A program made the translations under genes and the position numbers. Below, in pieces: positions 15,797 to 62,203 of a stretch of 64,000 nt of DNA. This stretch comes from an uncultured Gammaproteobacteria bacterium (GTDB lineage: Bacteria; Patescibacteriota; Patescibacteriia; UBA9934), in assembly GCA_964599455.1 (NCBI GenBank), contig CAZREA010000001.1, forward strand, positions 269,183 to 333,182, given 5' to 3'. Position 1 is the stretch's first letter. Each line of letters opens with the position of its first letter. Below the pieces are notes generated by a model that saw only the letters and a program-made list of their open reading frames with translations, did no database searches and was not told the DNA's origin.

Positions 15797-18160
15797 TTAT
15801 TGACCTAACTCTACACGTGTCTTCATGATCGAAGTATCGATACTGATATCTTCTTCATCAATATCATCACCCATTTCGAATCGAGTAAAGAGCGTAGGAG
15901 CAATATCGATGACATAGTCAGCCCAGTATCCACCATAATTATCAACGGCAACTTCTTCAGAAGCGATCCAGCGAAGTTCCACCGCACCACCATCACCAGC
16001 AACAAGAGCAAAGACGCGTGCATCGGATTGAATCTTTACGAGCACTACACCTGGATTTGGCAACATTGGACTACCCAGCGTAAGCGTTGGAAGCGTCGCA
16101 TCAGTCACCTCAACAACTCCATCAAAATCATCCTCGTAAGTAAAATACGTTTGCGCATCGTAGAATGGGCGACGAACAAGATCGCCGTCAACATCTTCGA
16201 TGAAATACACAGTAGCGTAATTTTCACCACGGATATAGTCGCCAGCTTCTACCACATTAATATCTTCTTCTTCACCAGAGTACGGGGAAACGCCCGTTTC
16301 ACCAGTGGTCTCAGCTTCCTCTTCTTCACTATCTTCATCTTCACTGTCCTCATCAACGGTACCAACCGAGAATTCACCGGAAGTATCGGTAGCAAGTTCG
16401 TCAACCAAATCAGTTCCCACGATCTTCAACCAAACATCTCCCAGCGCTTCTTCAGGCGTCCAGGTATAGACACCGTCGTTTTGTTGATTCTCGGCAATCA
16501 ATATCCAGCTCTCACCATCATCATCGGAATAATAAAGATTCACATAGGCCATGAGCGTACCTTCATAGGTCCAAGCGACATCAATCACATCACCAACTTC
16601 GTAGGCGTCATCTTCAGCCGGAGAACTAATTTCGAGAGAAAAGTCTTCATCCGAAGAAACCGTTTCCGATGCGGATGAACCACCATCTGAAGAACTATCA
16701 GAACTCTTCACCGTAAAGTGCAATGGACTTTCAACGGTTGTATCGCCCGCTTCCGCTCCAGCAAAGGCATTACTTGCAGAGTCGGGTGCGGTTGAAATTG
16801 TCAAGGTATTCAAACCGCTTGCCAGCACACCCGTATGCGTGATGGTGACCGTTACCGTAGAAATACTCGTTGAAAGGGTAACGCTTGGACTAACAGAGGC
16901 AGTGATGGAAGCAGGTTCCTCAGAGAATGTGAGCACGATGCTTGCGGTCTTCAAAATAGCCGCCTGATCTTCGGTTGGACTGCTGGAGATAAGAACCGGA
17001 CCGGCGCCATCCGAAACGGTAATTTGAGCTTGCGCTCCAAGGGTAGAGTTTGTATTCGTGCCTTCAGTGAGTGAGAAACTACTTTGAGATGAAAACGCTA
17101 CCGTTACCGCACTTGCAGTATCTTGAGCAGTTGATTCTGTTCCTAAATCAATAGTTGTTGAGGATACTGATCCTGTAATAAGATCGGTTGTCGCACCTCC
17201 AAATAACATTCCATCAAAATCGCCATCGTTGGTAAAAAGAAGGTCTGCCGCGCGCAATGTGCTTGCCGCAGTAACGGTTTCCGAATAGGCGAGAACAAAA
17301 CGATCAATCTTTCCATCAATATCATTATCTTGATATGTGGCAGTAATAATTTGCGGAGCCGCTCCGTCAGCAAACGTGGCTTGCGTCTGAGCTTTAACAC
17401 TGGTGTTCGCTGTCGTTCCATCAGTGATGGACAAAGTTCCATCACCCGTAATGGTACTAAAAGCAATGGTACCAAGTCCTTCAGCTGTATCTTTCGCTGT
17501 CGATTCCGTACCTAATGTCACGCTATCAGTCGTTCCCCCATCGGCAATATCAGTGGTAGCAGAGCCAAATGCCGCAGCAGTAAAATCTCCGACGGTCGTA
17601 AGAGAAAGATGTGAAGCTTTCAATACACTACCAGCAGCAGTTGATTCAGTATACGTGATAAGGAACGTATCAATCTTTCCATCAGCGTCTGCATCTTGAT
17701 AGGTCATCGTTTTAATTTGCGGAGCAGCACCATCGGTTGCGGTCGTGTTGGCACCATTTGCCATTTGGTTTGAACCAGCTGCATCACAAATGGAAGCAGC
17801 GGTTGTACAGTTTGCAACTGCGGTATAGGTAACCGTTGGAGTAATACTAGTATCACCCGACGTACAACCCGTCAGACCGCTAAGCGTGAGTGTCGTCGTG
17901 CTGTCGTTGTTGTAATCACCGGCAGCAATCGTGCAACCCGCGCTTAATGCAAGACTCGGAAAACCGTCACCTGCGTTGCCGTCGTCAAGATCTGCTGCTT
18001 CACTAAAGGTGATCGTAATTCGATCAACTGTTCCGTTGCCATCAGTGTCCGCAGTAACCGCAGTCATCGTTGGCGCTGCGGCGTGCGCAGGCTGTACCCA
18101 AAAAAGTTGCACCATGCCGGCAAGAAGACATGCAGCGGCAACACTCAGTGCCAATGTCAT
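15797..18160 (-). CDS. Large secreted repeat-containing surface protein (Thr/Ala/Asp-rich; DxDxDGxxD calcium-binding-like repeats)
   Basis: Signal peptide MTLALSVAAACLLAGMVQLFWVQPAHA; the longest ORF extends to 18271. Repeated units TDGNGTVDRITITFSE / DADADGKIDTFLITYTE / DNDIDGKIDRFVLAYSE and a C-terminal acidic EDSEDEDSEEEE tract. Confidence 0.55.
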   Translation of the reverse strand: MTLALSVAAACLLAGMVQLFWVQPAHAAAPTMTAVTADTDGNGTVDRITITFSEAADLDDGNAGDGFPSLALSAGCTIAAGDYNNDSTTTLTLSGLTGCTSGDTSITPTVTYTAVANCTTAASICDAAGSNQMANGANTTATDGAAPQIKTMTYQDADADGKIDTFLITYTESTAAGSVLKASHLSLTTVGDFTAAAFGSATTDIADGGTTDSVTLGTESTAKDTAEGLGTIAFSTITGDGTLSITDGTTANTSVKAQTQATFADGAAPQIITATYQDNDIDGKIDRFVLAYSETVTAASTLRAADLLFTNDGDFDGMLFGGATTDLITGSVSSTTIDLGTESTAQDTASAVTVAFSSQSSFSLTEGTNTNSTLGAQAQITVSDGAGPVLISSSPTEDQAAILKTASIVLTFSEEPASITASVSPSVTLSTSISTVTVTITHTGVLASGLNTLTISTAPDSASNAFAGAEAGDTTVESPLHFTVKSSDSSSDGGSSASETVSSDEDFSLEISSPAEDDAYEVGDVIDVAWTYEGTLMAYVNLYYSDDDGESWILIAENQQNDGVYTWTPEEALGDVWLKIVGTDLVDELATDTSGEFSVGTVDEDSEDEDSEEEEAETTGETGVSPYSGEEEDINVVEAGDYIRGENYATVYFIEDVDGDLVRRPFYDAQTYFTYEDDFDGVVEVTDATLPTLTLGSPMLPNPGVVLVKIQSDARVFALVAGDGGAVELRWIASEEVAVDNYGGYWADYVIDIAPTLFTRFEMGDDIDEEDISIDTSIMKTRVELGQ

Positions 18161-18301
18161 GGTTCTTTTACTCTCCGACAAGAGAAATCCGTTTCTCAGT
18201 TGCATAATGAAATAAAGAAAAGTTAAGTCTTTGCAAAAGAGTATAGAACACTTTTTCTCTTCTTTATACAAAAAGCATGAAAAGCTGTGGAAAGAAAATA
18301 T

Positions 18302-26472: not shown

Positions 26473-27270
26473 TTACCCGTAGATCGTAACCCAAAGCAAG
26501 AACACACCAAGCGCAATGCGATACAGGGCAAACCAACGGAAACCACCTTTTTCAATGACCGACAACAAAAATCTGATCGCAAAAACACCCGACAAAAAAG
26601 CAGTGACACAGCCAACAAGCAAAGCACCCACCGAAACATCAAGTCCCGTTTGTGCAACATCAACCGCAGTCAGCAATCCTGCTCCGGCAATCGCCGGAAT
26701 GGCAAGGAGAAAAGAAAACGTCGCTGCCGTTTTTCGATCAAGTCCCGCCAACAGTCCAACGCTCATGGTTATGCCCGAACGTGAAACGCCAGGAATAAGG
26801 GCGACTGCTTGCGCAACACCAATCCCAATTGCTAACGGCCACGACGTTTTATCATCACGCATCACCGATCGCGGATAGTGCGCAGCTACATAATCCGCAA
26901 TCCACAACACCATTCCCCACACAATCAACATCGTCGCCACAACCGATAATGTCCGCTGCGCTTCAAGCCAATCGCCGGCAAGAACACCAAAGACGGCCGC
27001 AGGAATGGTAGCAAGGATGATTTTGAGCAAAAACCGCTGCGCTCCTTTGTCACCTTTTTTAATCTCGTACCACCACGCACTGATGCGCGGCCAAAGAGCA
27101 ACGAATATTGCTCCGAGCGTTGCCAAATGCACCGCTACATCAAACGTTAAACTATGAATATCCCATCCTAACAAGTCAGGAAATAAAATAAGATGACCAG
27201 AACTGGAGATAGGTAAAAATTCCGTGAGACCTTGTACTATTCCAAGAATCGCGGCTTGGAAGAGCGTCAT
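26473..27270 (-). CDS. uppP: Undecaprenyl-diphosphatase
   Basis: MTLFQAAILGIVQGLTEFLPISSSGHLIL and 8 TM helices, as in the BacA/UppP family. Confidence 0.9.
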   Translation of the reverse strand: MTLFQAAILGIVQGLTEFLPISSSGHLILFPDLLGWDIHSLTFDVAVHLATLGAIFVALWPRISAWWYEIKKGDKGAQRFLLKIILATIPAAVFGVLAGDWLEAQRTLSVVATMLIVWGMVLWIADYVAAHYPRSVMRDDKTSWPLAIGIGVAQAVALIPGVSRSGITMSVGLLAGLDRKTAATFSFLLAIPAIAGAGLLTAVDVAQTGLDVSVGALLVGCVTAFLSGVFAIRFLLSVIEKGGFRWFALYRIALGVFLLWVTIYG

Positions 27271-29228
27271 ATATCTTTTAGTGAATGATCGTTTTGCAAC
27301 GGTGTTGCATTTGGGATGGTGGGATGCGGAAGCGAAGCTAAAGGATTCACCATCAATGGTGAAGACGATCCACTCATTGCACTTCCTGGCTTCTTTTTGC
27401 GGCGACGTTTACGTTTTTTCTTCGCTCCATCATCAACATGATTGTTTTCTGTACGCTCAGAACTAAAAGAAAGATCGTCACGCTCTTGCTGATGATTGTA
27501 TTCAACAGTTGATGACGTGGATGGTATTTGTGTCGACCGAGGTTCGGATTGCAATGCCGATAACGGCGCCGAGGCTGCAACTGGTCTTTCAATTATTGCC
27601 CCATCGGACACTTTTGCCGGAGCAAAAATAACCGGTCCTTTTTGTACTTTACGCATGTCCGCTTTTTCTTTTGCCTTTTGGCGTTCGGCATCAACGATAG
27701 GCTTGCATTCTTCACAATAAATCGGACGCGAACGATCGAGTTCAACCGGCAATAAGAATTTTTTGCCACATCGCGTACAGTCGTATTCGTGACTGTAACG
27801 CAACTTCTTGGCTTCTTTTTTCGCATCACGCACTTCGGCAAGTTTTTCTTCAACATTCACATCATCACCAAAACCACTCCACGTTACCACATGGTCTTCA
27901 ATCATCTTGCGATTGCCGCCGTAACGCTCACGTGATTGTTCAATAACTTTTTGCGCACTGAAAGTTCGCTGTGCAATGGGAGGTAAAGTAGTAGCGGAAA
28001 ATGGTTGACTCGTCACGCCATCAATCATGAGTTTGACGTAGATACCAATTTTTGGCAGCTCAATAAGATCCTGAGCCGTAAAGCGGGGCATGAATTCAGG
28101 TTCAAGGAAAAGACTATCCGGCGAACCCACACGAAAAGTGATCATGGTACCCACGTTACCGAACACCGCATCGCGCACTTCTTCGGACAGCTGGGCAATG
28201 TATTGATGCGCCAAAATAAGATTCAATCGATATTTACGCGCCTCAGACAAAATCGTCGCAAATGATTCAACGGCAAAGTTTTGAAATTCATCAACGTACA
28301 AGTAAAAATCTTTGCGATCTTTTTCGGGCATGTCGACCCGTTCCATGGCAGAAATCTGCACCTTGGTAATGAGCATGCCGCCCAACAAGCGCATCGCTTC
28401 GTCACCATTTCGTCCCTTTGATAAGTTCACAATAAAAATCTTTTCATTGTCCATGATGTCGCGCAAATTCAAAGAACTTTTTGCCTGCGCAACAATATTG
28501 CGTATAACCGCCGATGAAATAAATTGTCCGACTTTATTTTGAATTGGCGCTACAGCTTCTGAGGCGAACTTTGAATCGTAGGCTGCAAACTCTTGCACCC
28601 AAAATTGCTTCACGATCGGATCTTTGATGTTTTTAATGATCTCGAGACGATAATCCTTGTCCGACAACATGCGATTGATACCAAGAAGTGTGGAGCCAGG
28701 CGTATCGAGTAATGCCTTCACGGTGTTATTGAGAATATATTCCATGCGCGCGCTCCACACATTTTCCCAAATCTTTTTAAAGACCGACAACAATGATGAT
28801 GCAATACGTTCTTTTTCTTCCGTAAGTAAATCAACCGGCAAATCATGATTTACCTCAAGAACGTTGAAGGCGATCGGATTATCAAAATCAGCAGGATTGA
28901 AATAGACAACATCATTAATGCGCCACGAAGGAATGAAGTCAATCAATTTTTCGGCCGTGTCACCGTGCGGATCAATATAACAGCAGCCGTGCCCCGCATA
29001 GACGTCCGACAAAAACATGTTCTCCATGAGCGTGGTTTTGCCCATACCCGTCTTACCGATAATGTACATGTGGCGACGGCGATCATCGGTTTTGATGCCA
29101 AACTTGCGCATGGCATTGCGAAAATTTGTTTGGGCAAAATGCGTAACATGCTGCTCATGATCATACTGAAACGAACCATCTCCTGATGGTTTTGTGGGCT
29201 TTACTGCATCGTCATGGACATCGTGCAT
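27267..29228 (-). CDS. FtsK/HerA/TraG-superfamily P-loop ATPase, T4SS coupling-protein-like (TraG/VirD4/TraD family), soluble, with C-terminal zinc ribbon and basic S/T-rich tail
   Basis: YIIGKTGMGKTTLMENM (Walker A). YLYVDEFQNFAVESF (Walker B D-E). ARKYRLNLILAHQYIAQL matches the TraG-D_C-like sensor. YDCTRCGKKF...YCEECKP ribbon. KKKRKRRRKKK tail. No TM segments. Confidence 0.55.
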   Translation of the reverse strand: MHDVHDDAVKPTKPSGDGSFQYDHEQHVTHFAQTNFRNAMRKFGIKTDDRRRHMYIIGKTGMGKTTLMENMFLSDVYAGHGCCYIDPHGDTAEKLIDFIPSWRINDVVYFNPADFDNPIAFNVLEVNHDLPVDLLTEEKERIASSLLSVFKKIWENVWSARMEYILNNTVKALLDTPGSTLLGINRMLSDKDYRLEIIKNIKDPIVKQFWVQEFAAYDSKFASEAVAPIQNKVGQFISSAVIRNIVAQAKSSLNLRDIMDNEKIFIVNLSKGRNGDEAMRLLGGMLITKVQISAMERVDMPEKDRKDFYLYVDEFQNFAVESFATILSEARKYRLNLILAHQYIAQLSEEVRDAVFGNVGTMITFRVGSPDSLFLEPEFMPRFTAQDLIELPKIGIYVKLMIDGVTSQPFSATTLPPIAQRTFSAQKVIEQSRERYGGNRKMIEDHVVTWSGFGDDVNVEEKLAEVRDAKKEAKKLRYSHEYDCTRCGKKFLLPVELDRSRPIYCEECKPIVDAERQKAKEKADMRKVQKGPVIFAPAKVSDGAIIERPVAASAPLSALQSEPRSTQIPSTSSTVEYNHQQERDDLSFSSERTENNHVDDGAKKKRKRRRKKKPGSAMSGSSSPLMVNPLASLPHPTIPNATPLQNDHSLKDI

Positions 29229-29237
29229 AGCAGAAAA

Positions 29238-30827
29238 CTAAAAAGGGAGATTCTCGGGAGGTTCAGCGGGATCGGTAGATGGATGCGTAGGAGTCGGGGT
29301 CGTCGGCGAGACCGCTGCATGCTCGACTGCCGCAGATCGCGGCCAAAGACCATCCGCAGTCGGCTGTTGCACCATCGATCCTGCGTGATGACCTCCCATG
29401 GCCGGATTTTCATAGGTATTGACGGCGGTACCACGACGATCTAAATACACTCGCTTCCAATCATCAGTCGATGGTTCGCGACTTTCTTCGCCCATAGGAG
29501 CCAAAGGTGCCGAAGGTAATTGAAAAGGCGCTTCAGCACGTCGTGCGCCCATAGCCGTGAGCACCGGCGTTCGCGCGTCAGCCGAGGGGAAGTGAAAAAT
29601 CGTTGCCAATTCTTCTGCATTCAAAATACAGGGATTCGCACCCGCGCCAAACGAACGCGATGCATAGCGCTGTGCAAGAATCGATTGTTTTTTAGCGTAT
29701 GTCCATTCCTGATAAAAATAATCATTCTTTGGCACCGATGGACCATGCGTGGAAAGTTGGTTTAGTAGCGGATTAGTAAAAGGCTGGAATGCACCCTTCA
29801 TGCCAGCAGCAAAAATACCCTTGCGGAACTTTCCTTTTGGCCCAACCCCAATCCAACGAATCTTCGCTTTCCATCCCACTTTTGAAACCTTTTCAGCAAC
29901 GGCATCAATCTGTTTTTTATCAGCTGGTGTGAGCTTGAACATGCGAAAATCATCGCTCTTTTTGGTATCGGCTTTTTCGGCCCCACCACCACTACCCATC
30001 AACTGCTGCGCGACACCTACCGGAAACCACATAATGCCCTCCATCATGGCATCAAGGCCGCTTTTTTTAGGAGCTTTGGTTTCCTTGCCCATAATGGCCG
30101 CCAAAAAGGCGAGTCCATCTTTAATCCAGCCATCATCAGAAGGTGGTTTGATGATCAGCTGTATCCACAAATGCTCGCCCGGTTGCATTTTACCCATCAG
30201 CTCTAAAATCGGCAGGAGCGGGTCTTTGAACCGATTTTCTTTTTCGCCCATGTGTTCAAAATCTTCGAATGTGCGAATAGGCAAATAATCAGGTTTGCCA
30301 AGCACAATCTCGCCACCAAATAATTCCTGATCGTCATTCGGATATCGCTTGGCTACCAAGCCTGTATAATCAGGGACTTCGGTAATTTGCGCTTCCGGAT
30401 ACTGTGCGTACAAATCAGCCTCGATCAAATCACGATATTTATCCTGCGTACGAATAACAAAAGAAATATCCCCACCATTACTGATAATTTCAAACGAAAA
30501 ACGTGCCTGATCTTTCCCCAACAACCAAATTTCTTTCCAGGTTAAACCACTTTTAGCGCCAGCCATGTTGGAAAAAAAGTTTTCCATACCTTTTGGCGTT
30601 TGAATGCTTGTTTGCGGCACGCGGACTTCGAGATTAATCCAATGCAAATGATGCTCGTATTGCTCCATTTTGTAGTCGAGCCACAAGTGGGAGAATCCCC
30701 AAACGATAATAGCCAAAATAGGCAGCGGTCCAATAATCAGGAGCACATAGGCCAGCAATGTATCGGGAGGAATGGTATCTAAAAACCGTGTTACTTCCGG
30801 AGGAATGTTGAGCACGATGGCAAGCAT
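29238..30827 (-). CDS. Membrane-anchored protein of unknown function, co-operonic with the ATPase (10-nt spacing)
   Basis: N-terminal TM LLAYVLLIIGPLPILAIIVWGF followed by a large ~480-aa domain. No motif recognised. Confidence 0.45.
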   Translation of the reverse strand: MLAIVLNIPPEVTRFLDTIPPDTLLAYVLLIIGPLPILAIIVWGFSHLWLDYKMEQYEHHLHWINLEVRVPQTSIQTPKGMENFFSNMAGAKSGLTWKEIWLLGKDQARFSFEIISNGGDISFVIRTQDKYRDLIEADLYAQYPEAQITEVPDYTGLVAKRYPNDDQELFGGEIVLGKPDYLPIRTFEDFEHMGEKENRFKDPLLPILELMGKMQPGEHLWIQLIIKPPSDDGWIKDGLAFLAAIMGKETKAPKKSGLDAMMEGIMWFPVGVAQQLMGSGGGAEKADTKKSDDFRMFKLTPADKKQIDAVAEKVSKVGWKAKIRWIGVGPKGKFRKGIFAAGMKGAFQPFTNPLLNQLSTHGPSVPKNDYFYQEWTYAKKQSILAQRYASRSFGAGANPCILNAEELATIFHFPSADARTPVLTAMGARRAEAPFQLPSAPLAPMGEESREPSTDDWKRVYLDRRGTAVNTYENPAMGGHHAGSMVQQPTADGLWPRSAAVEHAAVSPTTPTPTHPSTDPAEPPENLPF

Positions 30828-30847: not shown

Positions 30848-30889
30848 AAAACAGAAAAATCGATCCGAGGTTATTAAGGATCGATTTTC
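30848..30889 (-). terminator. Rho-independent terminator downstream of secF
   Basis: aatcgatccgaggttattaaggatcgatt hairpin, then TTTTTCTGTTTT on the minus strand. Confidence 0.55.
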
Positions 30890-30908
30890 ATGCTTCGGAT
30901 TTTGCATT

Positions 30909-31808
30909 TTACTTCTTTTTCGCACTCCACTCATGCCACAACACCAACAATGGACTTGCCAAGAAAATGGAAGAAAAAGCTCCGGCTAAAATACCAATGA
31001 TAAGCGCCAACACAAACGGTCGTGTCGTCTCACCACCCACGATAAAGATCGCCAACAACGGAAGCAGTGTCGCGATCGTGGTATTAAATGAACGATTTAA
31101 CGTTTCATTTACACTTGCATTGACGATGGCACGAAAATCTTGAGAGTCCCGATGACGCAAGAGGTTTTCACGCGTACGATCAAAAACGACGATCGTATCG
31201 TTAATGGAGTACCCGAGAATGGTCAGAATTGCAGCCACAAATGACGTATCAACTTGATAACCCCACACATGTCCCAGAATGGCAAAAATGCCAAGCGGAA
31301 TAATAACGTCATGAAATGAAGCAATAAGAGTCGCGATACCGTACTTCCAAGAAGGCACGGGTTCGGAAACCTTGCGGAAAGCCCAGGCAACGTACAAACC
31401 GATCAAGGCCAATAAGATGATGATAGCAAAGACAGTTGCGCGCTTGAGTTCAGCACCCACGGTTGGTCCAACCGCCGTAAATTGCGTCTCAGTTACATCA
31501 GGATACGCCGTCTGCAAAGTGCCAATGATCCGCTGATGCTCTTCTTCAGAAACAACTGGCAAACGAATAAGATAGGCGTCGCCTTCACCTTTTTGCACAG
31601 TCGCTTCGAATCCGCTTTCGGCAACATGCGCACGCAACTCTTCGGTACTCTGTGCGGAACTCGTACGTACTTCAACCAAACTTCCACCACTAAAATCAAT
31701 ACTCCACTGCAATCCAAGGGTCCCGAGCGCAATCAACGATGCGGCAATCAACGTGAGAGAAAGTCCCAGCCACCAACCACTATAACGAAGGATAGGTAAA
31801 GTTTTCAT
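30909..31808 (-). CDS. secF: Protein translocase subunit SecF
   Basis: 299 aa with SecF topology and motifs (DFSGGS..., 6 TM). Confidence 0.9.
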   Translation of the reverse strand: MKTLPILRYSGWWLGLSLTLIAASLIALGTLGLQWSIDFSGGSLVEVRTSSAQSTEELRAHVAESGFEATVQKGEGDAYLIRLPVVSEEEHQRIIGTLQTAYPDVTETQFTAVGPTVGAELKRATVFAIIILLALIGLYVAWAFRKVSEPVPSWKYGIATLIASFHDVIIPLGIFAILGHVWGYQVDTSFVAAILTILGYSINDTIVVFDRTRENLLRHRDSQDFRAIVNASVNETLNRSFNTTIATLLPLLAIFIVGGETTRPFVLALIIGILAGAFSSIFLASPLLVLWHEWSAKKK

Positions 31809-31813
31809 AGAGA

Positions 31814-33847
31814 TTAGAGGCCAAGAAAGAAGAGGCGTGAACGAATGCGTTTCACCGGCGCGAGTAAGAACAAAATGCTGCGGGTGATTTTAAAGGTGGT
31901 GAAGATAGAAAGCAGCACACCAATACTGAGTGTTAACGCAAAGCCACGAATAAAGCCCGTGCTCATGCTATACAACACCGCCGTCGCAATCAGCGTGGTG
32001 AAATTTCCATCACGAATAGACGGCCAGGCACGACGGAAGGCTTCATCGAGTGCCGTGGGCAAATCTCGTCCAGCACGAAGCTCTTCTTTCAACCGCTCAA
32101 ACACCAACACATTTGCATCAACGGCAATGCCAAGCGACAAGATAAAGCCCGCAATACCCGACAAGGTCATGGTGACACCAAAAATCTTATAGAGCACAAT
32201 GTTGAGTCCTGCATACATCGCCAACGCAATCACCGCTACCAAACCGGCCAGGCGATAATAGGCGATCATGAAAACGGCAATCAGCGCAAAACCTACAAGT
32301 CCAGCCATCACACTTTGATCAAGTGATTCCTGACCGAGTGTTGGTCCAATCGTTTGCTGAGAAAGCAGATTGATAGGAACTGGCAATGCACCGGCATTCA
32401 AACGCTGCGCCAAAAGCTTTGCATCTTGTGGAGTAAAATCACCGGTAATACTTGCCTGACCACCATAAATTGCCTGCTGTACCACAGGAGTAGTGATCGG
32501 CTCACTGTCTAGGAAGATTCCAATCACATTGCCCACATTTGCCGCAGTGAGGTCGGCAAAAAGCTGGGCACCTTCATCGTTAAACGTTAGAGCAACATAC
32601 GGCTGGCCAGTGGTCGGATCAAATGCAACTGCTGCGGTCTTAATATGTTTTCCGGAAAGCTCCGTATTTTCCCACGGGTCGATCGATACGACATCAGATA
32701 CCGTTGTCCAGGGCATTTCGATGTGGGAAATTTCGTAGGCCTTGATCGTTTTACTATCTTGGCGATAGATGAGGTGATAACCAAAATCCGTTTCAACGAC
32801 TTCAGAAATACGACCGTCACGTAGTGCAAAAAGCGCATCATTGAATGACTGCACCATATCGCCTTCATTTACCCATCCCAAATCCCCACCCACATCTTTA
32901 CTGCCCGGATCATCAGAATGCTCTTTGGCAAGATCAACAAAATTTGCTGTTGTGGCTTCGATCTTTAATGAGTCAATGAGCGCACGCGCCTCATCACGAC
33001 TACGGTCTTGCGTACAGCCCTTGGCTCCCATGTAACAAATAAGAATATGAGAAGACTGCACCTGTGTACGATTTTCTGAGCTCACATAATTCACAATGTG
33101 CATGCGTGAGGTACCTTCGTACAATCCATCAATCACGCCGGTACGCAAACGATCTGCAGCAATACGATCTGCTAAACCTCCATACTCTTCATCTTCCGAG
33201 GTCACGAAACCGACGTAGCCATTGGCGTCTTTGGTCAGTGTATCAATGGAATACTGTTTGGCGAGAGCACTAAAATCGGCATTCTTTTGCAAGGCCTCGT
33301 CAAGAACTTTCAAAGCAGCTTCGCGTTCATTCTTTTGCGCTTCGTCAACTTTTGCTTGATCATCAATAGTTGGCTCAGCCGTAACATTCTCTTTGGGAAT
33401 TTTGAATTCAAGAACAGGAGTTTCACCAATTTGCGCCACCGCATCGGTTACATTGGTCAGTCCAGGAAGATCGACGATCACGCGATATCCGTTCGTCGAA
33501 TTCGTTGCTTGCACGTATGCCTCAGAAACACCAAAAGCATTCACACGGCGCTCAATGACGTCGCGTACGCCTTCGAGTGCCTGCGATCGATCAGTTTCGG
33601 TAATATTGCCCATGTCGGCCTCATACACCAAATGGGCTCCGCCTTGCAGATCAAGACCGAGTCGCAGACCTTCATCAGGAATATACGGGAAATGAAAACC
33701 AACACGCTCATCAAGCCATTGCATGGCTGCATTATATGGCCCAGGAACACTTCCTACGCCCGCAAAAAGAAAGATGACAAGTAACCCCACCGCTGTCCAC
33801 TTGGCCCGGCGGCGACCAGCCGCAGCCTGCTGCACATACTTATTCAT
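31814..33847 (-). CDS. secD: Protein translocase subunit SecD with an embedded PpiC-type (parvulin) PPIase domain
   Basis: SecD periplasmic and TM domains. Internal ...DVGGDLGWVNEGDMVQSFNDALFALRDGRISEVVETDFGYHLI... parvulin domain. Start MNKYVQQ at 33847; the longest ORF runs to 33946. Confidence 0.8.
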   Translation of the reverse strand: MNKYVQQAAAGRRRAKWTAVGLLVIFLFAGVGSVPGPYNAAMQWLDERVGFHFPYIPDEGLRLGLDLQGGAHLVYEADMGNITETDRSQALEGVRDVIERRVNAFGVSEAYVQATNSTNGYRVIVDLPGLTNVTDAVAQIGETPVLEFKIPKENVTAEPTIDDQAKVDEAQKNEREAALKVLDEALQKNADFSALAKQYSIDTLTKDANGYVGFVTSEDEEYGGLADRIAADRLRTGVIDGLYEGTSRMHIVNYVSSENRTQVQSSHILICYMGAKGCTQDRSRDEARALIDSLKIEATTANFVDLAKEHSDDPGSKDVGGDLGWVNEGDMVQSFNDALFALRDGRISEVVETDFGYHLIYRQDSKTIKAYEISHIEMPWTTVSDVVSIDPWENTELSGKHIKTAAVAFDPTTGQPYVALTFNDEGAQLFADLTAANVGNVIGIFLDSEPITTPVVQQAIYGGQASITGDFTPQDAKLLAQRLNAGALPVPINLLSQQTIGPTLGQESLDQSVMAGLVGFALIAVFMIAYYRLAGLVAVIALAMYAGLNIVLYKIFGVTMTLSGIAGFILSLGIAVDANVLVFERLKEELRAGRDLPTALDEAFRRAWPSIRDGNFTTLIATAVLYSMSTGFIRGFALTLSIGVLLSIFTTFKITRSILFLLAPVKRIRSRLFFLGL

Positions 33848-33920
33848 AGTTGGAGGGATAGTAGCAGAGGAAAGAAAGACGGGTAAAGAGGAATCAGGGG
33901 ATGAAGAGAGAAAATTTGTT

Positions 33921-34349
33921 TTATGTTGGCGAGATATGCGCATCAATCGTCACATTTACCAAAGCATCTGCTTCTTTATTTGCCTCGCGACGAACATGGG
34001 TGAATGTTACTTGGCGAAAGTGTTGCCGCAGATCGTGTACCTCAATAAATCTCTTGGCGATTTCTGGATTCTTCACCTTATACTGTCCATTCAATTGACG
34101 CACGGCGAGTTCCGAATCCATGCGCATGTCAACGACGTCGTATCCGAGTTCATGTGCTTTTTTTAAGCCCTCGATAATACCGGTGTATTCCGCTTGATTA
34201 TTGGTGGTTGCACCAAGATAACGTGCAGCTTCGGCAATTTGCTCGCCGCGCGATCCGTCTTTGCGTTTCTCGAATAATACCGCCGCGCCAGCTGCAGGTC
34301 CGGGATTACCCCGCGATCCACCGTCTGTATAGATGATGCAAGTTTTCAT
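33921..34349 (-). CDS. rnhA: Ribonuclease HI
   Basis: MKTCIIYTDGGSRGNPGPAAGAAVL and other RNase H motifs. 142 aa. Confidence 0.85.
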   Translation of the reverse strand: MKTCIIYTDGGSRGNPGPAAGAAVLFEKRKDGSRGEQIAEAARYLGATTNNQAEYTGIIEGLKKAHELGYDVVDMRMDSELAVRQLNGQYKVKNPEIAKRFIEVHDLRQHFRQVTFTHVRREANKEADALVNVTIDAHISPT

Positions 34350-59052: not shown

Positions 59053-60573
59053 TCAGGGTCTGAACACAAATCTCTTCATCGCTCGTAAAATCCCCATCAT
59101 ATCCAAAGGTTCTTTTTTAAACGTTACCTTGATTTCATGAATCTTTGGCTTGTCTTCAACATCTCTAACCCGCGGAGCAGAGAGAACAAGCCTGTAAGCC
59201 CCCTGTTCCTTTGGGGCTCCTTCCAAAGAAAAAGAAGCGTTCGATTGACGCCAACCTGCATCGGTAAATGCCGTTGGCGCAATCGTTGCCAGAACATAGG
59301 ATACACCGGCATCAGCAAGCGAAGGCAGGGCCGTAACTTGCAATGCATCAGGATTGAAAAATGCATCTTCACTGAGTGCAAATTTTCCATCACCAATAAG
59401 CTTTACATCTCCGACCGGCGAAGTGAAAGTAGCGATATCGGCATCCGCGATCACTACAGAAACTTTTTCTTGTACACCAGAAATCGCGAGCGCTTGCGCT
59501 CCAGCCTGCAACGTTTGCAATCCTTCTGCATGCAACGTTTCAGCGGTGAGGTATTTTACATCTGACCAAAAGGTTGTTGCGCGAGGTTGTGGCAAAAAAC
59601 CGATATCATCAGCAATGAAGAGTTGATTTTTAAAGACAAAATATGAACCGCTCTCGGTAATTGATCGCCAAATAATGTCTGAGGTTGAAGATAAGGAAAT
59701 ACGATAAACACCCTCAGGTAAATTATTCTTTTTAAACGTGATCGTTCGTAATGAGGACTGTGTTTGATCTTCAGAAATCACACCGTCATCAAGAAACGGC
59801 TCTTCAAACATCGTTTGCCCGGCTTCATTGATAATTTTCACGAAGCCCTCATCAGGGCCATAGCTGCGATTTACATCAACGAACGAAACCGAGAATGTTG
59901 TCTGTTCATGGTCCTGAACATACATCAATGCTTCATGCGCACCACGCAACGCGACGTCATATGTTCGCGGGGATGCGAGAGAAGTCGCCGAAAAATCACG
60001 AAACGGCTGCGTCCAAGCGGTGCGGTACACAGCAATATCTTCTCGCTTGGGGATGTTGGCAAGAAAAGCATCAACATCTTGCACGTCATCATTTTTTGCC
60101 CAGACTTTTTCTAGCAATCCATTATCCAAAGTCTTTGTTGTTGATGGCCAAGCAAGCGTATCAAGTGCCCGATAAAAAAGAGGTGTAAAAGTAAAACGCT
60201 GCAAGCGAAGATCTTGTAATAGTCCCACTTCAAGCAAATCTTGATCTTCCGCGTCAAAAGAAATCGCTACATCCATCGATGTCCAATCTCCGGGTGGAGG
60301 CGTTAGCGAGACATAAACCGGTTCATCAATAATCGCTATGCATGAGCCTCGGTCATCAGCACATGTTGCATCCATGCGTGCATCAGGCAAAGGGCGGCCA
60401 ATCAGCGGCGAGGCTGCATCTGCATACCAAATCGCTGATCGTTCACCGGTCGGAGCGATATATATCCAAAACAACAGGCAAAAAAGTGCCGATGGAAAAA
60501 GGGCAACAAAAAGAATGGAAAAAATGTTACTTTTGAACGCTCTCGACATATTCAATACGATACAACGTTTCAT
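59053..60573 (-). CDS. Membrane-anchored hypothetical protein (large extracytoplasmic domain)
   Basis: N-terminal TM IFSILFVALFPSALFCLLFWIY. No motif recognised. 506 aa. Confidence 0.45.
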   Translation of the reverse strand: MKRCIVLNMSRAFKSNIFSILFVALFPSALFCLLFWIYIAPTGERSAIWYADAASPLIGRPLPDARMDATCADDRGSCIAIIDEPVYVSLTPPPGDWTSMDVAISFDAEDQDLLEVGLLQDLRLQRFTFTPLFYRALDTLAWPSTTKTLDNGLLEKVWAKNDDVQDVDAFLANIPKREDIAVYRTAWTQPFRDFSATSLASPRTYDVALRGAHEALMYVQDHEQTTFSVSFVDVNRSYGPDEGFVKIINEAGQTMFEEPFLDDGVISEDQTQSSLRTITFKKNNLPEGVYRISLSSTSDIIWRSITESGSYFVFKNQLFIADDIGFLPQPRATTFWSDVKYLTAETLHAEGLQTLQAGAQALAISGVQEKVSVVIADADIATFTSPVGDVKLIGDGKFALSEDAFFNPDALQVTALPSLADAGVSYVLATIAPTAFTDAGWRQSNASFSLEGAPKEQGAYRLVLSAPRVRDVEDKPKIHEIKVTFKKEPLDMMGILRAMKRFVFRP

Positions 60574-62203
60574 CTTGCAAAGTAATCACAGGGACAAATT
60601 GCAATCCCTCACCAATAAGTTTTATTTCCTTCAAATAACGGAGATCTTTTTCAGGTAAGGTGATGCCAAAATAATACGTCGGTGCATTCTGCATCATGAT
60701 TGGAATCGCCTCATAGGTTACATCACTACGCAAAGGCGCGACCACGCGTCGATCGGGCCAGAGATATTTATCAGCCCGATCGACGATAATAATGGCATCG
60801 TTTTCGGTTGCCGCAAGAATCGCTTCTTGTTTTTCTTGGAACGATGCCAGTGCAGCTCGACTAGCAAAGATTCCATCTGCTCCCCAAAAAACCAAACGTC
60901 CCGATAAAATCAACGTTAACACACACAAGCAAGCAAGTACGATCTGACGAGCGCGATCTGATCTTTCTTTTTTAACTAACATTGAAGCTCTATCCACAAT
61001 CCATACACATGCCTGTGCGGCAAAAGGCGTTGCCAATACAAAAAGTGGTAACCAATACCGAACATACGAATTGCCAAGTGAAATTGCCCGAGGATCGGGA
61101 TTGTCATGAAACAACCAACTCCCATACAGCACAAAAAGATAACTACTGATGAGCGTCGAGGAGATCGTCCATGCTTTCCAAAAAAAGGACTGCTTTTTCC
61201 ATGTACTCAGCACGAGCATACTTCCAAATAATGCAGGAATGGTCATCCATGGATACAACAGAAACGCGTAAAAAAAGATATGACGCAGTGTTGAACGCAG
61301 ATGTATGCCAAATGGAAAAAAGAGTTCACTTACTGTCTGCCAATAGTCAATGCTCTGCGTCGTATCAGGTGAAACTCCAGCTTCTTGCACAACAGGTTGC
61401 CATAATTGTTGGCCGACTGTATAGCCAGTTGTAAATGGATTTCCGTATGTCATCCCATTTGCTCCTAACATGAAGAGTATCATCACACCAAAACCGATTC
61501 CTGATGCGAGAAGATCACGCCAGCTCATCCATGTTTTTCGTAAAGCGATGATCACGAGCACAAGCACCGTTGGCAGTATCCACCATAATTCTGCCGCGCG
61601 AATAAACAAGGCCATGCCCACACAAAAACCCGACAATGCCCACAAAAGCATGCGATGACGAACTATGGATACTCGATAGGCAGTCACCGCAATCCACAGT
61701 GCGAATAGAAGGAAAGCAACAAAAGGAATATTCGGCATCAAGGTTCGACTGGTATACAGCCACCATGCCGGATGTATAGCGAGAAGAAATAACGACAGTA
61801 ATGCAAGGCGTTTATCATCTGTGCATTTATAAAGAAGGGAGCCAAGCGCAGATAGAGCGAGCAATGAGAGAAACGGCGTGAATAAGAATGTCAATTGAGA
61901 AGAGATCATGCTGATACCGCCAACCAGATAAGACATGCCCAGAAAACTTGCAGGCACCAAGGATGTTCCGACCGTCAATACACTGCGTGGATGTAAAATG
62001 CCAGAAAGCACGCTGTTCAATGGCTCGCTAAGCATCGGTACTCCCTGTTCAACGATCGCTTGAGTAAAGGTAAACGTCGCATGTTCATCAGGAGAAACGA
62101 AAACATGCGTATTCCAGGCAAAAGGAATTGATAAAAAAAGTGTTGTTAAAAAATACAAAAACAGCAGACCTCCTATTATCAGCCTGGTCTGCACAAAAGA
62201 CAT
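60527..62203 (-). CDS. GT-C fold membrane glycosyltransferase (ArnT/PMT-like, GT39/GT83-type)
   Basis: 558 aa with ~12 TM helices and a conserved N-terminal loop after TM1 (FVSPDEHATF...), as in PMT/ArnT-type transferases. Family assignment by topology and composition only. Confidence 0.5.
   Translation of the reverse strand: MSFVQTRLIIGGLLFLYFLTTLFLSIPFAWNTHVFVSPDEHATFTFTQAIVEQGVPMLSEPLNSVLSGILHPRSVLTVGTSLVPASFLGMSYLVGGISMISSQLTFLFTPFLSLLALSALGSLLYKCTDDKRLALLSLFLLAIHPAWWLYTSRTLMPNIPFVAFLLFALWIAVTAYRVSIVRHRMLLWALSGFCVGMALFIRAAELWWILPTVLVLVIIALRKTWMSWRDLLASGIGFGVMILFMLGANGMTYGNPFTTGYTVGQQLWQPVVQEAGVSPDTTQSIDYWQTVSELFFPFGIHLRSTLRHIFFYAFLLYPWMTIPALFGSMLVLSTWKKQSFFWKAWTISSTLISSYLFVLYGSWLFHDNPDPRAISLGNSYVRYWLPLFVLATPFAAQACVWIVDRASMLVKKERSDRARQIVLACLCVLTLILSGRLVFWGADGIFASRAALASFQEKQEAILAATENDAIIIVDRADKYLWPDRRVVAPLRSDVTYEAIPIMMQNAPTYYFGITLPEKDLRYLKEIKLIGEGLQFVPVITLQDETLYRIEYVESVQK

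Follow-up and report, generated by a model that had tools for sequence, protein, structure and literature searches.

The window, the 64-kb stretch of DNA that was analysed, comes from an ultra-small bacterium of the CPR (Patescibacteria) and carries two adjacent genes on its minus strand, and both open reading frames exist as given in the initial annotation. The first gene (29238-30827, minus strand) encodes a 529-residue protein of the Pfam family DUF8128 (PF26449), here called the partner, which combines a transmembrane (TM) anchor, a cytoplasmic core that resembles the VirB4 N-terminal domain (NTD) in its predicted fold, and a disordered tail. The second gene (27267-29228, minus strand) encodes a 653-residue, TM-less P-loop ATPase that Pfam, NCBIfam, hhalign and Foldseek place close to type IV coupling proteins (T4CPs; VirD4/TrwB). 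The spacer between the two genes, TAG-TTTTCTGCT-ATG, is 9 nt rather than the 10 nt first reported.

Genomic setting of the gene pair

The pair is embedded in the gene order recJ-rnhA-secD-secF-partner-ATPase-uppP-methyltransferase, which is also found in genomes that are only ~50% identical. Downstream, the start of uppP/bacA (26473-27270, minus strand), an undecaprenyl-diphosphate phosphatase by its Pfam BacA match of 262 bits, overlaps the stop of the ATPase gene (ATGA). This co-directional arrangement upholds the operon-like run with uppP that had been described and supports a predicted translational coupling of the two genes; uppP lies within 5 kb downstream in 39/63 loci. Upstream lie secF (30909-31808) and secD (31814-33946), both on the minus strand and assigned by Pfam, the latter with an inserted PpiC rotamase domain; secF is found no more than 1.5 kb upstream at 66/74 loci. 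The 81-nt spacer between secF and the partner contains a hairpin with a 12-bp stem and a U-rich tract (30848-30896, minus strand; MFE -22 kcal/mol, z=-3.98), a possible terminator or attenuator. By crude mononucleotide shuffles, the spacer is structured (z<-2) at 22/31 related loci, and 12 of these spacers also carry a U-tail. Because this hairpin stands between secF and the gene pair, the adjacency to secDF may carry no functional meaning.

The GC content of the locus is ordinary, and no T4SS, conjugation, relaxase or phage families were found among the tested ORFs of the 64-kb window, in agreement with the initial annotation. In each of the 57 loci compared, the ATPase exceeds SecD in conservation (median identity 67% versus 58%). 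These data show that the motor is under very strong purifying selection and that the gene pair belongs to the core chromosome and is non-mobile.

The ATPase and its membrane partner

The motor core of the ATPase (residues 45-454; 27867-29096, minus strand) contains a Walker A motif, GKTGMGKTT (residues 58-66; 29031-29057), a Walker B motif, YLYVDEFQNF (residues 309-318; 28275-28304), and the sequence LILAHQ (residues 337-342), all of which are invariant in an alignment of 30 sequences, and the enzyme is predicted from these motifs to be catalytically intact. The protein scores above the curated Pfam cut-offs of TrwB_AAD_bind (PF10412; 44.8 bits, cut-off 20.5), T4SS-DNA_transf (PF02534; 32.0 bits, cut-off 20.1), TraG-D_C (PF12696; 27.1 bits, cut-off 22) and DUF87 (26.8 bits, cut-off 23.2), while FtsK_SpoIIIE gave no Pfam match and a gamma/winged-helix domain is likewise absent. 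In hhalign, residues 47-348 align with TrwB residues 119-392 (probability 93.9%, E=1.6e-7), an alignment that begins past the TrwB TMD, whereas TrwK gave only a short match in the P-loop region (residues 53-137, probability 2.4%). The PDB sequences matched were those of DotL and TrwB only, and Foldseek, run with a weak model (pLDDT 54.5), ranked DotL, Cag-beta and TrwB above HerA and HerA above VirB4. No TM segment is present, the maximum hydropathy being 1.08. Thus, the sequence supports the earlier assignment of the protein as a TraG/VirD4/TrwB-type ATPase that lacks the usual N-terminal membrane domain. Its scores against the NCBIfam conjugative equivalogs (38-42 bits) fall well below their cut-offs of 250-366, as does that against TIGR00929 (13.5 bits, cut-off 643).

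Beyond the motor core, the ATPase carries a Cys4 zinc ribbon, CTRCGKKFLLPVELDRSRPIYCEEC (residues 484-508; 27705-27779, minus strand), with the pattern CxxC-x17-CxxC formed by C484, C487, C505 and C508. Profile matches of the ribbon lie below curated thresholds (zf_Tbcl_2, 19.6 versus 27; TIGR04272, 18.7 versus 36), and all four cysteines are invariant in the 30-sequence alignment. The ribbon occurs in 57/63 adjacent split-type ATPases but is gone from distant split forms and from the fused forms examined (0/54; see below). A polybasic tract, KKKRKRRRKKK (residues 603-613; 27390-27422, minus strand), lies inside the disordered tail; runs of at least six K/R residues are found in 34/63 homologues and the tract is thus not conserved. 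Both elements are present as initially described, but given this uneven distribution the nucleic-acid binding that was ascribed to them is something we can only infer.

The partner has a single TM helix (residues ~24-48; 30684-30758, minus strand; Kyte-Doolittle maximum 2.76 in a 19-residue window) with a predicted N-out/C-in topology, and a TM segment is found in 77/79 homologues. The mean number of K+R residues flanking the helix is 0.23 on the N side and 2.17 on the C side. This bias, together with fused forms in which DUF8128 lies on the same side of the membrane as the ATPase, shows that the DUF8128 domain is cytoplasmic. The conserved globular core (residues ~60-440; 29508-30650, minus strand), defined by the alignment A1 and by a structure model that is confident over this region, contains the hallmark motifs QTPKGMENFF, LYAQYPEAQITEV and EELATIFHFP...RTPV; A1 has 67 invariant columns. 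The core is followed by a disordered, Pro/acidic tail (29241-29507, minus strand; pLDDT <50), which terminates in PENLPF (29241-29258), conserved as PxNLPΦ.

The partner had been described as having an unknown fold. Its top 11 Foldseek matches are, however, all TrwK chains (probability 0.95-1.0, TM-scores only ~0.3), and no other P-loop ATPases appear in either structure match list; the partner itself has no P-loop. Since Foldseek does not display the aligned TrwK residues, the VirB4 NTD was singled out by exclusion. The structure model thus suggests that the cytoplasmic core has a VirB4 NTD fold, a likeness at the fold level only: hhalign found no match to TrwK and no detectable similarity to TrsD (probability 0.1%), and 0 PDB sequences matched in a profile search.

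Linkage and natural fusions

Linkage was assessed at 72 loci from CPR genomes, each representing a different GTDB species. In 62 of these, or 63 when locus L020, where the genes overlap, is included, the partner gene is followed downstream within 1.5 kb by a same-strand ATPase gene, the median gap being 6 nt. This linkage is far above chance; only nine Magasanikbacteria-like loci have a partner without an adjacent ATPase. The PxNLPΦ terminus follows the same division, being present in 66/69 partners with an adjacent ATPase versus 2/9 without (Fisher p=1.5e-6, a value that ignores phylogeny).

Moreover, related bacteria encode both halves as one fused protein. Locus L085 contains a single gene for an 849-residue TM-DUF8128-T4CP protein, to which the window proteins align in the order of the split genes, the partner core on residues 91-433 (E=2e-18) and the ATPase motor core on residues 422-833 (43% identity, E=2e-114). 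The fusion has at least 325 metagenomic relatives, and single-ORF fusions were confirmed in 54 of the best 80 metagenomic loci (median 853 residues), 47 of the 54 lying directly upstream of dnaX. The tail motif is absent from the fused forms.

Taken together, the adjacency, the tail motif that tracks the ATPase and the natural fusions support the partner and ATPase forming one unit, as far as comparative sequence data can tell, and bear out the earlier proposal that the upstream membrane protein acts with the ATPase; the two did not prove unlinked in other genomes. The accompanying idea of a split-off anchor holds in part: a separate membrane anchor is supported, but the partner is not simply a detached T4CP membrane domain.

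A candidate membrane-docked translocase

We consider it probable that the two proteins are subunits of a single hexameric translocase that is docked at the membrane, is specific to CPR and combines a VirB4 architecture with a VirD4/TrwB-type motor. In the R388 T4SS structures, the VirB4 NTD holds VirB4 at the inner-membrane complex. By analogy, DUF8128, a single-pass protein with a VirB4-NTD-like cytoplasmic domain and a flexible acidic/Pro-rich tail ending in PxNLPΦ, would recruit the ring of the anchor-less ATPase, with its C-terminal zinc ribbon and basic disordered tail, and position it at the membrane. The tail motif may help to tether the ATPase when the two are separate proteins, while in the fused form covalent linkage would make the motif needless. 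ATP hydrolysis would then drive a polymer substrate to a membrane channel encoded elsewhere.

The window ATPase shares with the T4CPs VirD4, TrwB, TraD and DotL the motor family, a helical insertion at the site of the all-alpha domain and the TraG-D_C motif and, like many T4CPs, has a C-terminal extension. Unlike these proteins, it has no N-terminal TM domain and no relaxase or T4SS linkage, is core-chromosomal and slow-evolving, carries a zinc ribbon, stays below all NCBIfam equivalog cut-offs, and is of a type that is paired or fused with a VirB4-NTD-like domain. VirB4/TrwK of R388 has the same order as the fused CPR proteins, an N-terminal membrane-proximal domain followed by an FtsK/HerA-superfamily ATPase. 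The ATPase half, however, resembles VirD4 and not the VirB4 C-terminal domain, the N-domain shows no sequence similarity, DUF8128 has its own TM helix, two genes encode the system in the window, and VirB3, VirB6 and VirB8 are not among the neighbours. In pGO1, whose T4SS is of the monoderm MPF-FATA type, the gene for the VirB4-NTD-like TrsD directly precedes that for the ATPase TrsE (PMC12102498), a natural split in the gene order of the window pair, but TrsD has 227 residues, TrsE is VirB4-type and both lie inside a plasmid T4SS operon. For pIP501, TraI has been put forward as the separately encoded membrane anchor that recruits the TM-less, VirD4-like TraJ (PMC13037476); these two belong to a conjugative plasmid T4SS, and their likeness to the window pair is one of design. 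Much weaker similarity exists to EccE with EccC of type VII secretion: EccC has TM segments itself and contains three ATPase domains, and no other T7SS genes are present at the window locus.

The pair supplies an anatomy for the "orphan T4CPs" that were described from Patescibacteria in 2025. One of these, Southlakia SEML1_0293 (921 residues), shares the phylum, the NCBI product name and a location away from virB4, and its TrwB_AAD_bind domain (402-719) is positioned as in the fused DUF8128-T4CP protein (422-746), making it a putative relative. As published, the orphan T4CPs are described with no partner, VirB4-NTD-like domain or secDF-uppP locus.

As to the substrate, nucleic acid or nucleoprotein is our tentative choice, an argument weakened by the ribbon and polybasic tract not being universal; protein or other envelope-related cargo seems doubtful, and something else altogether only slightly less so. 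DNA uptake or translocation, as first suggested, is a possible function. Should the substrate be nucleic acid, delivery to a T4SS that Patescibacteria encode elsewhere and a route independent of any T4SS, such as ComEC DNA uptake, appear roughly equally likely.

On the first route, the ATPase would be the coupling protein of the Patescibacterial T4SS, encoded at a distance from the virB4 cluster and equipped with a separate anchor, and would recruit the substrates, effectors or DNA, that are to be exported to the host bacterium. The T4CP family assignment fits this reading, as does the distribution of VirD4-like homologues in Patescibacteria, of which only 148 of 5,713 (in 2,918 genomes) are near virB4 (PMC12102498). 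Furthermore, the Southlakia T4SS cluster has no recognisable coupling protein, and the VirB4-NTD-like partner could use the same VirB3/VirB6/VirB8 docking platform. We nevertheless regard it as rather unlikely: no T4SS gene is present in the 64 kb of the window, nor in the 8-10 kb on either side at the four loci whose neighbours are annotated, conservation above SecD is unusual among T4CPs, and the Southlakia T4SS is essential while SEML1_0293, whose relation to the DUF8128-T4CP family is putative, is non-essential in Tn-seq.

T4CPs are DNA-dependent ATPases. The motor could serve DNA uptake, for competence or nucleotide scavenging, by drawing ssDNA in via ComEC, the role otherwise played by the ComFA ATPase, which was not found in the Southlakia gene tables. 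CPR lack nucleotide synthesis, Saccharibacteria are naturally competent through ComEC, the ribbon and basic tail of the window protein would suit this reading, and the strongly conserved, core-genome status would fit a housekeeping role. The split-type loci are, however, unlinked to comEC, dprA and pilus genes, the fused forms lack the ribbon, and comEC is dispensable in Southlakia, so that constraint this strong would be surprising; we judge uptake unlikely.

Less probable still is an FtsK-like DNA pump for segregation or division. A membrane tether, a long disordered linker and a hexameric FtsK/HerA-superfamily motor do recall FtsK, division and cell-wall genes (ftsW, murG, mraY, Mur ligases) abound in the window, and the fused form neighbours dnaX. 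Yet the ATPase has neither the FtsK_SpoIIIE match nor the gamma/winged-helix domain, its best matches are T4CPs, and Southlakia, the one CPR genome whose complete gene tables were examined, encodes a genuine FtsK (SEML1_0096) that is essential.

The novel defence system initially entertained is poorly supported, and an anti-phage module is very improbable. In PADLOC, the ATPase scores highest against mad8 of the MADS system (E=8e-16, 56 bits), with weaker HerA and DndH matches, and we attribute the mad8 match to generic T4CP/HerA-type similarity; the partner has no PADLOC match, the neighbours secF and uppP are not defence genes, GC is ordinary, and the locus is identical across dozens of species rather than a variable island. 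Conservation above SecD at a core-genome locus makes a defence island or an integrated conjugative element unlikely alike. Finally, a remnant or cargo of such an element with an ordinary conjugative T4CP, although compatible with the T4CP family matches, is scarcely credible given the low equivalog scores, the absence of a relaxase, of VirB4, of an integrase and of a tRNA-flanked island (the pair lies 19 kb from the only tRNA) and, above all, the synteny survey, which effectively refutes it.

The DUF8128-ATPase gene pair and its locus

The initial annotation described two adjacent minus-strand genes, and both were confirmed: a 529-residue open reading frame (ORF) encoding a membrane protein, referred to here as the partner (29238–30827 (-)), and a 653-residue ORF encoding the ATPase (27267–29228 (-)). 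The genes are separated by 9 nt rather than by the 10 nt given there. Each is present in a single copy within the window, and the local GC content is unremarkable. The pair lies in a co-directional run, recJ-rnhA-secD-secF-partner-ATPase-uppP-methyltransferase, in which the ATPase stop codon overlaps the start of uppP/bacA (ATGA), in line with the operon-like arrangement proposed earlier. The remainder of the window encodes mostly envelope and housekeeping functions (Mur ligases, ftsW, mraY, murG, glycosyltransferases, rmlD, pgsA, CTP synthase, lepA and mnmA). As first noted, no T4SS or phage genes, and likewise no relaxase or integrase genes, were found within the 64 kb. The annotated neighbourhoods of four related loci (L001, P0103, L084 and L085) also contained no relaxase or mating-pair-formation genes (VirB4 etc.). 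Three large ORFs in the window, at 15797–18271 (-), 59053–60573 (-) and 60527–62203 (-) (824, 506 and 558 residues), matched no significant Pfam/NCBIfam family, the last showing only a faint glycosyltransferase-like match; these may be CPR-specific envelope proteins.

Linkage was surveyed across 80 loci representing different GTDB species, 72 of which were informative for ATPase adjacency. In 62 of these 72, the ATPase gene is found downstream of the partner gene, within 1.5 kb and in the same orientation, and with L020, a locus with overlapping genes, the count is 63; this bears out the phyletic linkage for which the initial annotation had proposed a check and shows that the genetic coupling is obligatory. 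The median gap between the two genes is 6 nt, secF is directly upstream of the partner in 66/74 loci and uppP follows the ATPase in 39/63. The order secD-secF-DUF8128-ATPase-BacA is kept on 0.6–0.9-Mb contigs whose identity to the window is only ~50%. No other protein of the cluster is as conserved as the ATPase: its median identity is 67%, compared to 58% for SecD, 55% for SecF, 50% for UppP and 49% for the partner, and its identity exceeds that of SecD in 57 of 57 loci. The pair has a core, strongly constrained function and is neither a mobile element nor a defence island. Many GTDB-representative contigs with this CPR synteny (L002, L005, L006, L010, L014 and others; L004; L057) bear titles such as "uncultured Gammaproteobacteria bacterium", "Candidatus Kapaibacterium" or "Candidatus Binatia", presumably reflecting mislabelled MAG submissions. 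The SecD of the window (31814–33946 (-)) carries a PpiC-type Rotamase_3 domain inserted at residues ~286–397, between SecD_1st and the P1-head, an insertion also annotated for the SecD proteins of the related loci L001, P0103 and L084.

The 81-nt spacer between secF and the partner gene contains a 12-bp hairpin and, after it, a U-rich tract (30848–30896 (-); -22 kcal/mol, z = -4.0), and structured spacers are found at this position in 22 of 31 related loci. The hairpin may be a terminator or attenuator that parts secDF from the pair. Because the spacer is terminator-like and secDF was never seen near the fused form of the pair in the verified fused loci, secDF adjacency was considered as a functional hint and downgraded.

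An ATPase of the T4CP type lacking a membrane anchor

The ATPase was identified as TraG/VirD4-like and anchor-less, and both attributes hold. Its Pfam matches are led by TrwB_AAD_bind (PF10412, residues 45–367; 44.8 bits versus a cut-off of 20.5), followed by T4SS-DNA_transf (PF02534; 32.0 versus 20.1 bits) and TraG-D_C (27.1 bits, exceeding the curated cut-off). The Walker A (GKTGMGKTT), Walker B (YLYVDEFQNF) and LILAHQ motifs are invariant in an alignment of 30 sequences, as are the four cysteines of the CxxC-x17-CxxC ribbon. Profile comparison (hhalign) of the ATPase family with the R388 proteins (from NC_028464) gave a probability of 93.9% for the VirD4-type ATPase TrwB, with ATPase residue 47 aligned to TrwB residue 119, so that the alignment begins right behind the TrwB membrane domain. 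By contrast, only the P-loop region aligned to TrwK, the VirB4-type ATPase, with a probability of 2.4%, and the VirB4 model TIGR00929 scored 13.5 bits versus a cut-off of 643. DotL and TrwB were the only solved structures found by sequence. Foldseek ranked DotL, Cag-beta and TrwB above HerA, and HerA above VirB4, which is weak corroboration, as the AlphaFold model is poor overall (pLDDT 54.5); the model contains an all-helical insertion at residues ~132–246 (local pLDDT 57–81), a possible counterpart of the all-alpha domain that T4CPs carry within the nucleotide-binding domain. No hydrophobic transmembrane (TM) segment is present in the ATPase (top 19-residue hydropathy, 1.08), and an N-terminal TM segment is absent from every correctly delimited homologue. 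The KKKRKRRRKKK tract singled out in the initial annotation is present but is not a conserved feature, as comparable tracts occur in 34/63 homologues; the ribbon and this basic tail speak for a nucleic-acid substrate, but neither appendage is universal. A 901-residue homologue (P0210) was considered as an ATPase fusion and rejected, its extra length being only a long low-complexity tail. A conserved C-terminal motif, …(V/L)xPGE(R)ISF(D/E), ends 43 of 63 split-type ATPases; compared with L001 and L007–L056, the window ATPase (C-terminal stretch, 27267–27390 (-)) and its closest relatives (L002–L005) lack this motif and end past (S/T)LPHPT(I/L)P.

Among known systems, the ATPase most resembles the T4CPs (VirD4/TrwB/TraG), with which it shares nucleotide-binding domain profiles and intact Walker A and B motifs. 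Canonical T4CPs are docked at the membrane by their own TM domain. However, the ATPase and its homologues lack this N-terminal domain, and the relaxase/mating-pair-formation linkage of canonical members is missing from the window and the four annotated neighbourhoods. The NCBIfam cut-offs for conjugative T4CPs were also missed (TraD, 41.8 versus 366 bits; CD1115, 38.7 versus 250; TrbC, 31.5 versus 800). For a HerA-type helicase there is a DUF87 match (PF01935; 26.8 bits), which is barely over its cut-off of 23.2 and is outscored by the T4CP models; no NurA-like nuclease gene lies beside the ATPase, the neighbours being DUF8128 and uppP. For FtsK/SpoIIIE, which was among the proposed checks, neither the motor nor the gamma/winged-helix domain (PF01580, PF09397) was found at E ≤ 0.1. 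For the novel defence-type system raised in the initial annotation there is a mad8-like PADLOC match of the ATPase (56 bits), which is generic ATPase similarity; against it stand the core locus, the absence of a PADLOC match for the partner, and the flanking genes, which are secF and uppP and not other components of the MADS defence system.

The partner and its predicted VirB4-like fold

Scans of the partner returned nothing in NCBIfam, PADLOC or a Pfam set without the PF26449 model. Precomputed PF26449 (DUF8128) matches are, however, recorded for all 120 listed partner homologues, at up to 75% identity, and the partner is very likely a member of this family. DUF8128 comprises ~2,500 clusters at 50% identity, its recorded organism names are all CPR or unclassified "bacterium", and no mention of DUF8128 or PF26449 was found in the literature.

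The partner is composed of a TM helix (one strong hydrophobic segment, residues ~24–48), a highly conserved core of ~380 residues, and a variable disordered tail ending in acidic residues and a conserved C-terminal PxNLPΦ motif. An AlphaFold model built from 32 sequences was confident in the core (pLDDT ~90), and Foldseek placed eleven TrwK chains on top (probability 0.95–1.0, TM-score ~0.3). As TrwK was the only P-loop ATPase in either partner fold-match list and the partner itself has no P-loop, the match corresponds to the non-ATPase N-terminal domain of VirB4, and from the model we conclude that the core is predicted to adopt this fold. Sequence comparisons were blank, with no hhalign signal against R388 TrwK or pGO1 TrsD, the latter a VirB4-NTD-like protein, and no matches of the partner profile at E ≤ 10 among all PDB sequences; thus, it is the fold that links the partner to VirB4. 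The mean number of Lys and Arg residues is 0.23 in the N-terminal flank of the TM helix versus 2.17 in the C-terminal flank, which by the positive-inside rule places the core in the cytoplasm.

Among partners encoded next to an ATPase, 66 of 69 carry the PxNLPΦ motif; among those lacking such a neighbour, 2 of 9 do (Fisher p = 1.5e-6, with no correction for phylogeny). The zinc ribbon was considered as the receptor of this motif and excluded, since split loci in which the ATPase has no ribbon still retain the motif. Directly 5′ of stand-alone, Magasanikbacteria-type DUF8128 genes lies an ORF of 52–53 residues with two predicted TM helices (L084:9821–9982, L085:9834–9992), which recalls a small membrane protein of the VirB3 kind. 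No equivalent exists in the window, where the secF-partner spacer is only 81 nt.

Fused relatives and a possible translocation mechanism

The 1.03-Mb contig L085 encodes a stand-alone DUF8128 protein without an adjacent ATPase and, in addition, an 849-residue protein annotated as DUF8128 plus T4CP, the only fused copy among L001–L085. Partner residues 84–462 align to 91–433 of this natural fusion (E = 2e-18) and ATPase residues 45–454 to 422–833 (43% identity, E = 2e-114), which is the VirB4 domain order. A metagenome scan returned at least 325 relatives of the fusion; the best 80 span all 849 residues at 55–78% identity, and 54 of these were confirmed as single ORFs with both hallmarks (median 853 residues). 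Fused proteins retain the N-terminal TM helix and lack the partner tail and motif, the first ~44 residues of the ATPase and, in all 54, the zinc-ribbon tail; this loss is as expected if the tails hold two separate subunits together. Fusion to the motor is also proof that the DUF8128 domain lies in the cytoplasm. The partner and ATPase are one unit, the fusion being decisive among the linkage evidence.

In VirB4, the N-domain and ATPase reside in one polypeptide, which is docked at the membrane by its own N-domain with VirB3 and VirB8. The window pair divides a similar architecture between two genes, which are one in the fused relatives; the partner is of the VirB4 N-terminal type by its predicted fold, whereas the ATPase resembles T4CPs. 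The best reading is a split (or fused), CPR-specific machine of VirB4 architecture that is driven by a T4CP-type motor and belongs to the core genome. The observations of the initial annotation stand, and its interpretation is partly supported. In this machine DUF8128 would dock the ATPase ring at the membrane, and the motor would then push a polymer towards a channel whose genes lie elsewhere. Since six single TM helices would be unable to form a DNA pore, a separate channel (T4SS, ComEC or other) would be needed. Docking by a separate protein has parallels: TrsD plays this role for TrsE in pGO1 (PMC12102498), and in pIP501 the TM-less TraJ is putatively docked by TraI (PMC13037476).

DNA-dependent ATPase activity has precedent in the T4CP family. 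By analogy with it, and given the ribbon and basic tail, appendages that are not universal, nucleic acid is a tentative candidate for the substrate, at slightly under even chances. It is also conceivable, if rather unlikely, that DUF8128 and the ATPase represent a deep third lineage within the VirB4/VirD4 ATPase superfamily, combining a VirB4 N-domain with a VirD4 motor as a possible VirB4-VirD4 intermediate, domesticated in CPR as a T4SS-independent housekeeping translocase. Such a translocase might, for example, supply the missing motor, on the cytoplasmic side, for importing DNA, scavenging nucleotides or moving another envelope-crossing polymer. The Southlakia gene listing contains no ComFA. 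It does include SEML1_0293, a non-essential 921-residue protein with TrwB_AAD_bind at 402–719 (compared to 422–746 in the fused protein), and SEML1_0142, a second long T4CP-like protein, which is essential, as is the genuine FtsK.

CPR/Patescibacteria account for much of bacterial diversity. Across 2,918 Patescibacteria genomes, a survey counted 5,713 VirD4-like homologues, almost none of them close to virB4, and suggested possible exaptation without describing a partner (Quiñonero-Coronel et al. 2025, PMC12102498). Of these thousands of unexplained orphan ATPases, one large group at least now has a defined anatomy: an obligatory DUF8128 partner of predicted VirB4-N-domain fold, a fixed core locus, a fused counterpart and conserved terminal peptide motifs. 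An annotation puzzle thereby becomes a set of hypotheses on interaction, recruitment to the membrane, dependence on DNA and phenotype, which can be tested in the genetically tractable Saccharibacteria. It also touches the VirB4-VirD4 relationship, because the DUF8128-T4CP family mixes features of both T4SS ATPases.

Immediately upstream of the fused gene in 51/54 loci (L086–L165; L085:21112–21416) is an ORF of ~172 residues, which in L086 ends a few nt short of the fused gene, and dnaX is directly downstream in 47/54. The ~172-residue product, which may be a third component, has a C-terminal domain that is helical and strongly conserved (…IEKIMEEGL…LSPIAKQEFKIKGEETA…LLPGINRFFLEQEAKIKTD…), no Pfam match and no homologue in the window. 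Beside the stand-alone DUF8128 gene of L085 (11678–14179) are a bAvd gene and a reverse transcriptase (RVT_1), together with two ORFs whose C-termini are near-repeats (…CNDDDDWFSRCEFVGVVCE and …CNDNDNWNSNYEFVGVVCQ); this region looks like a diversity-generating retroelement with template and variable repeats.
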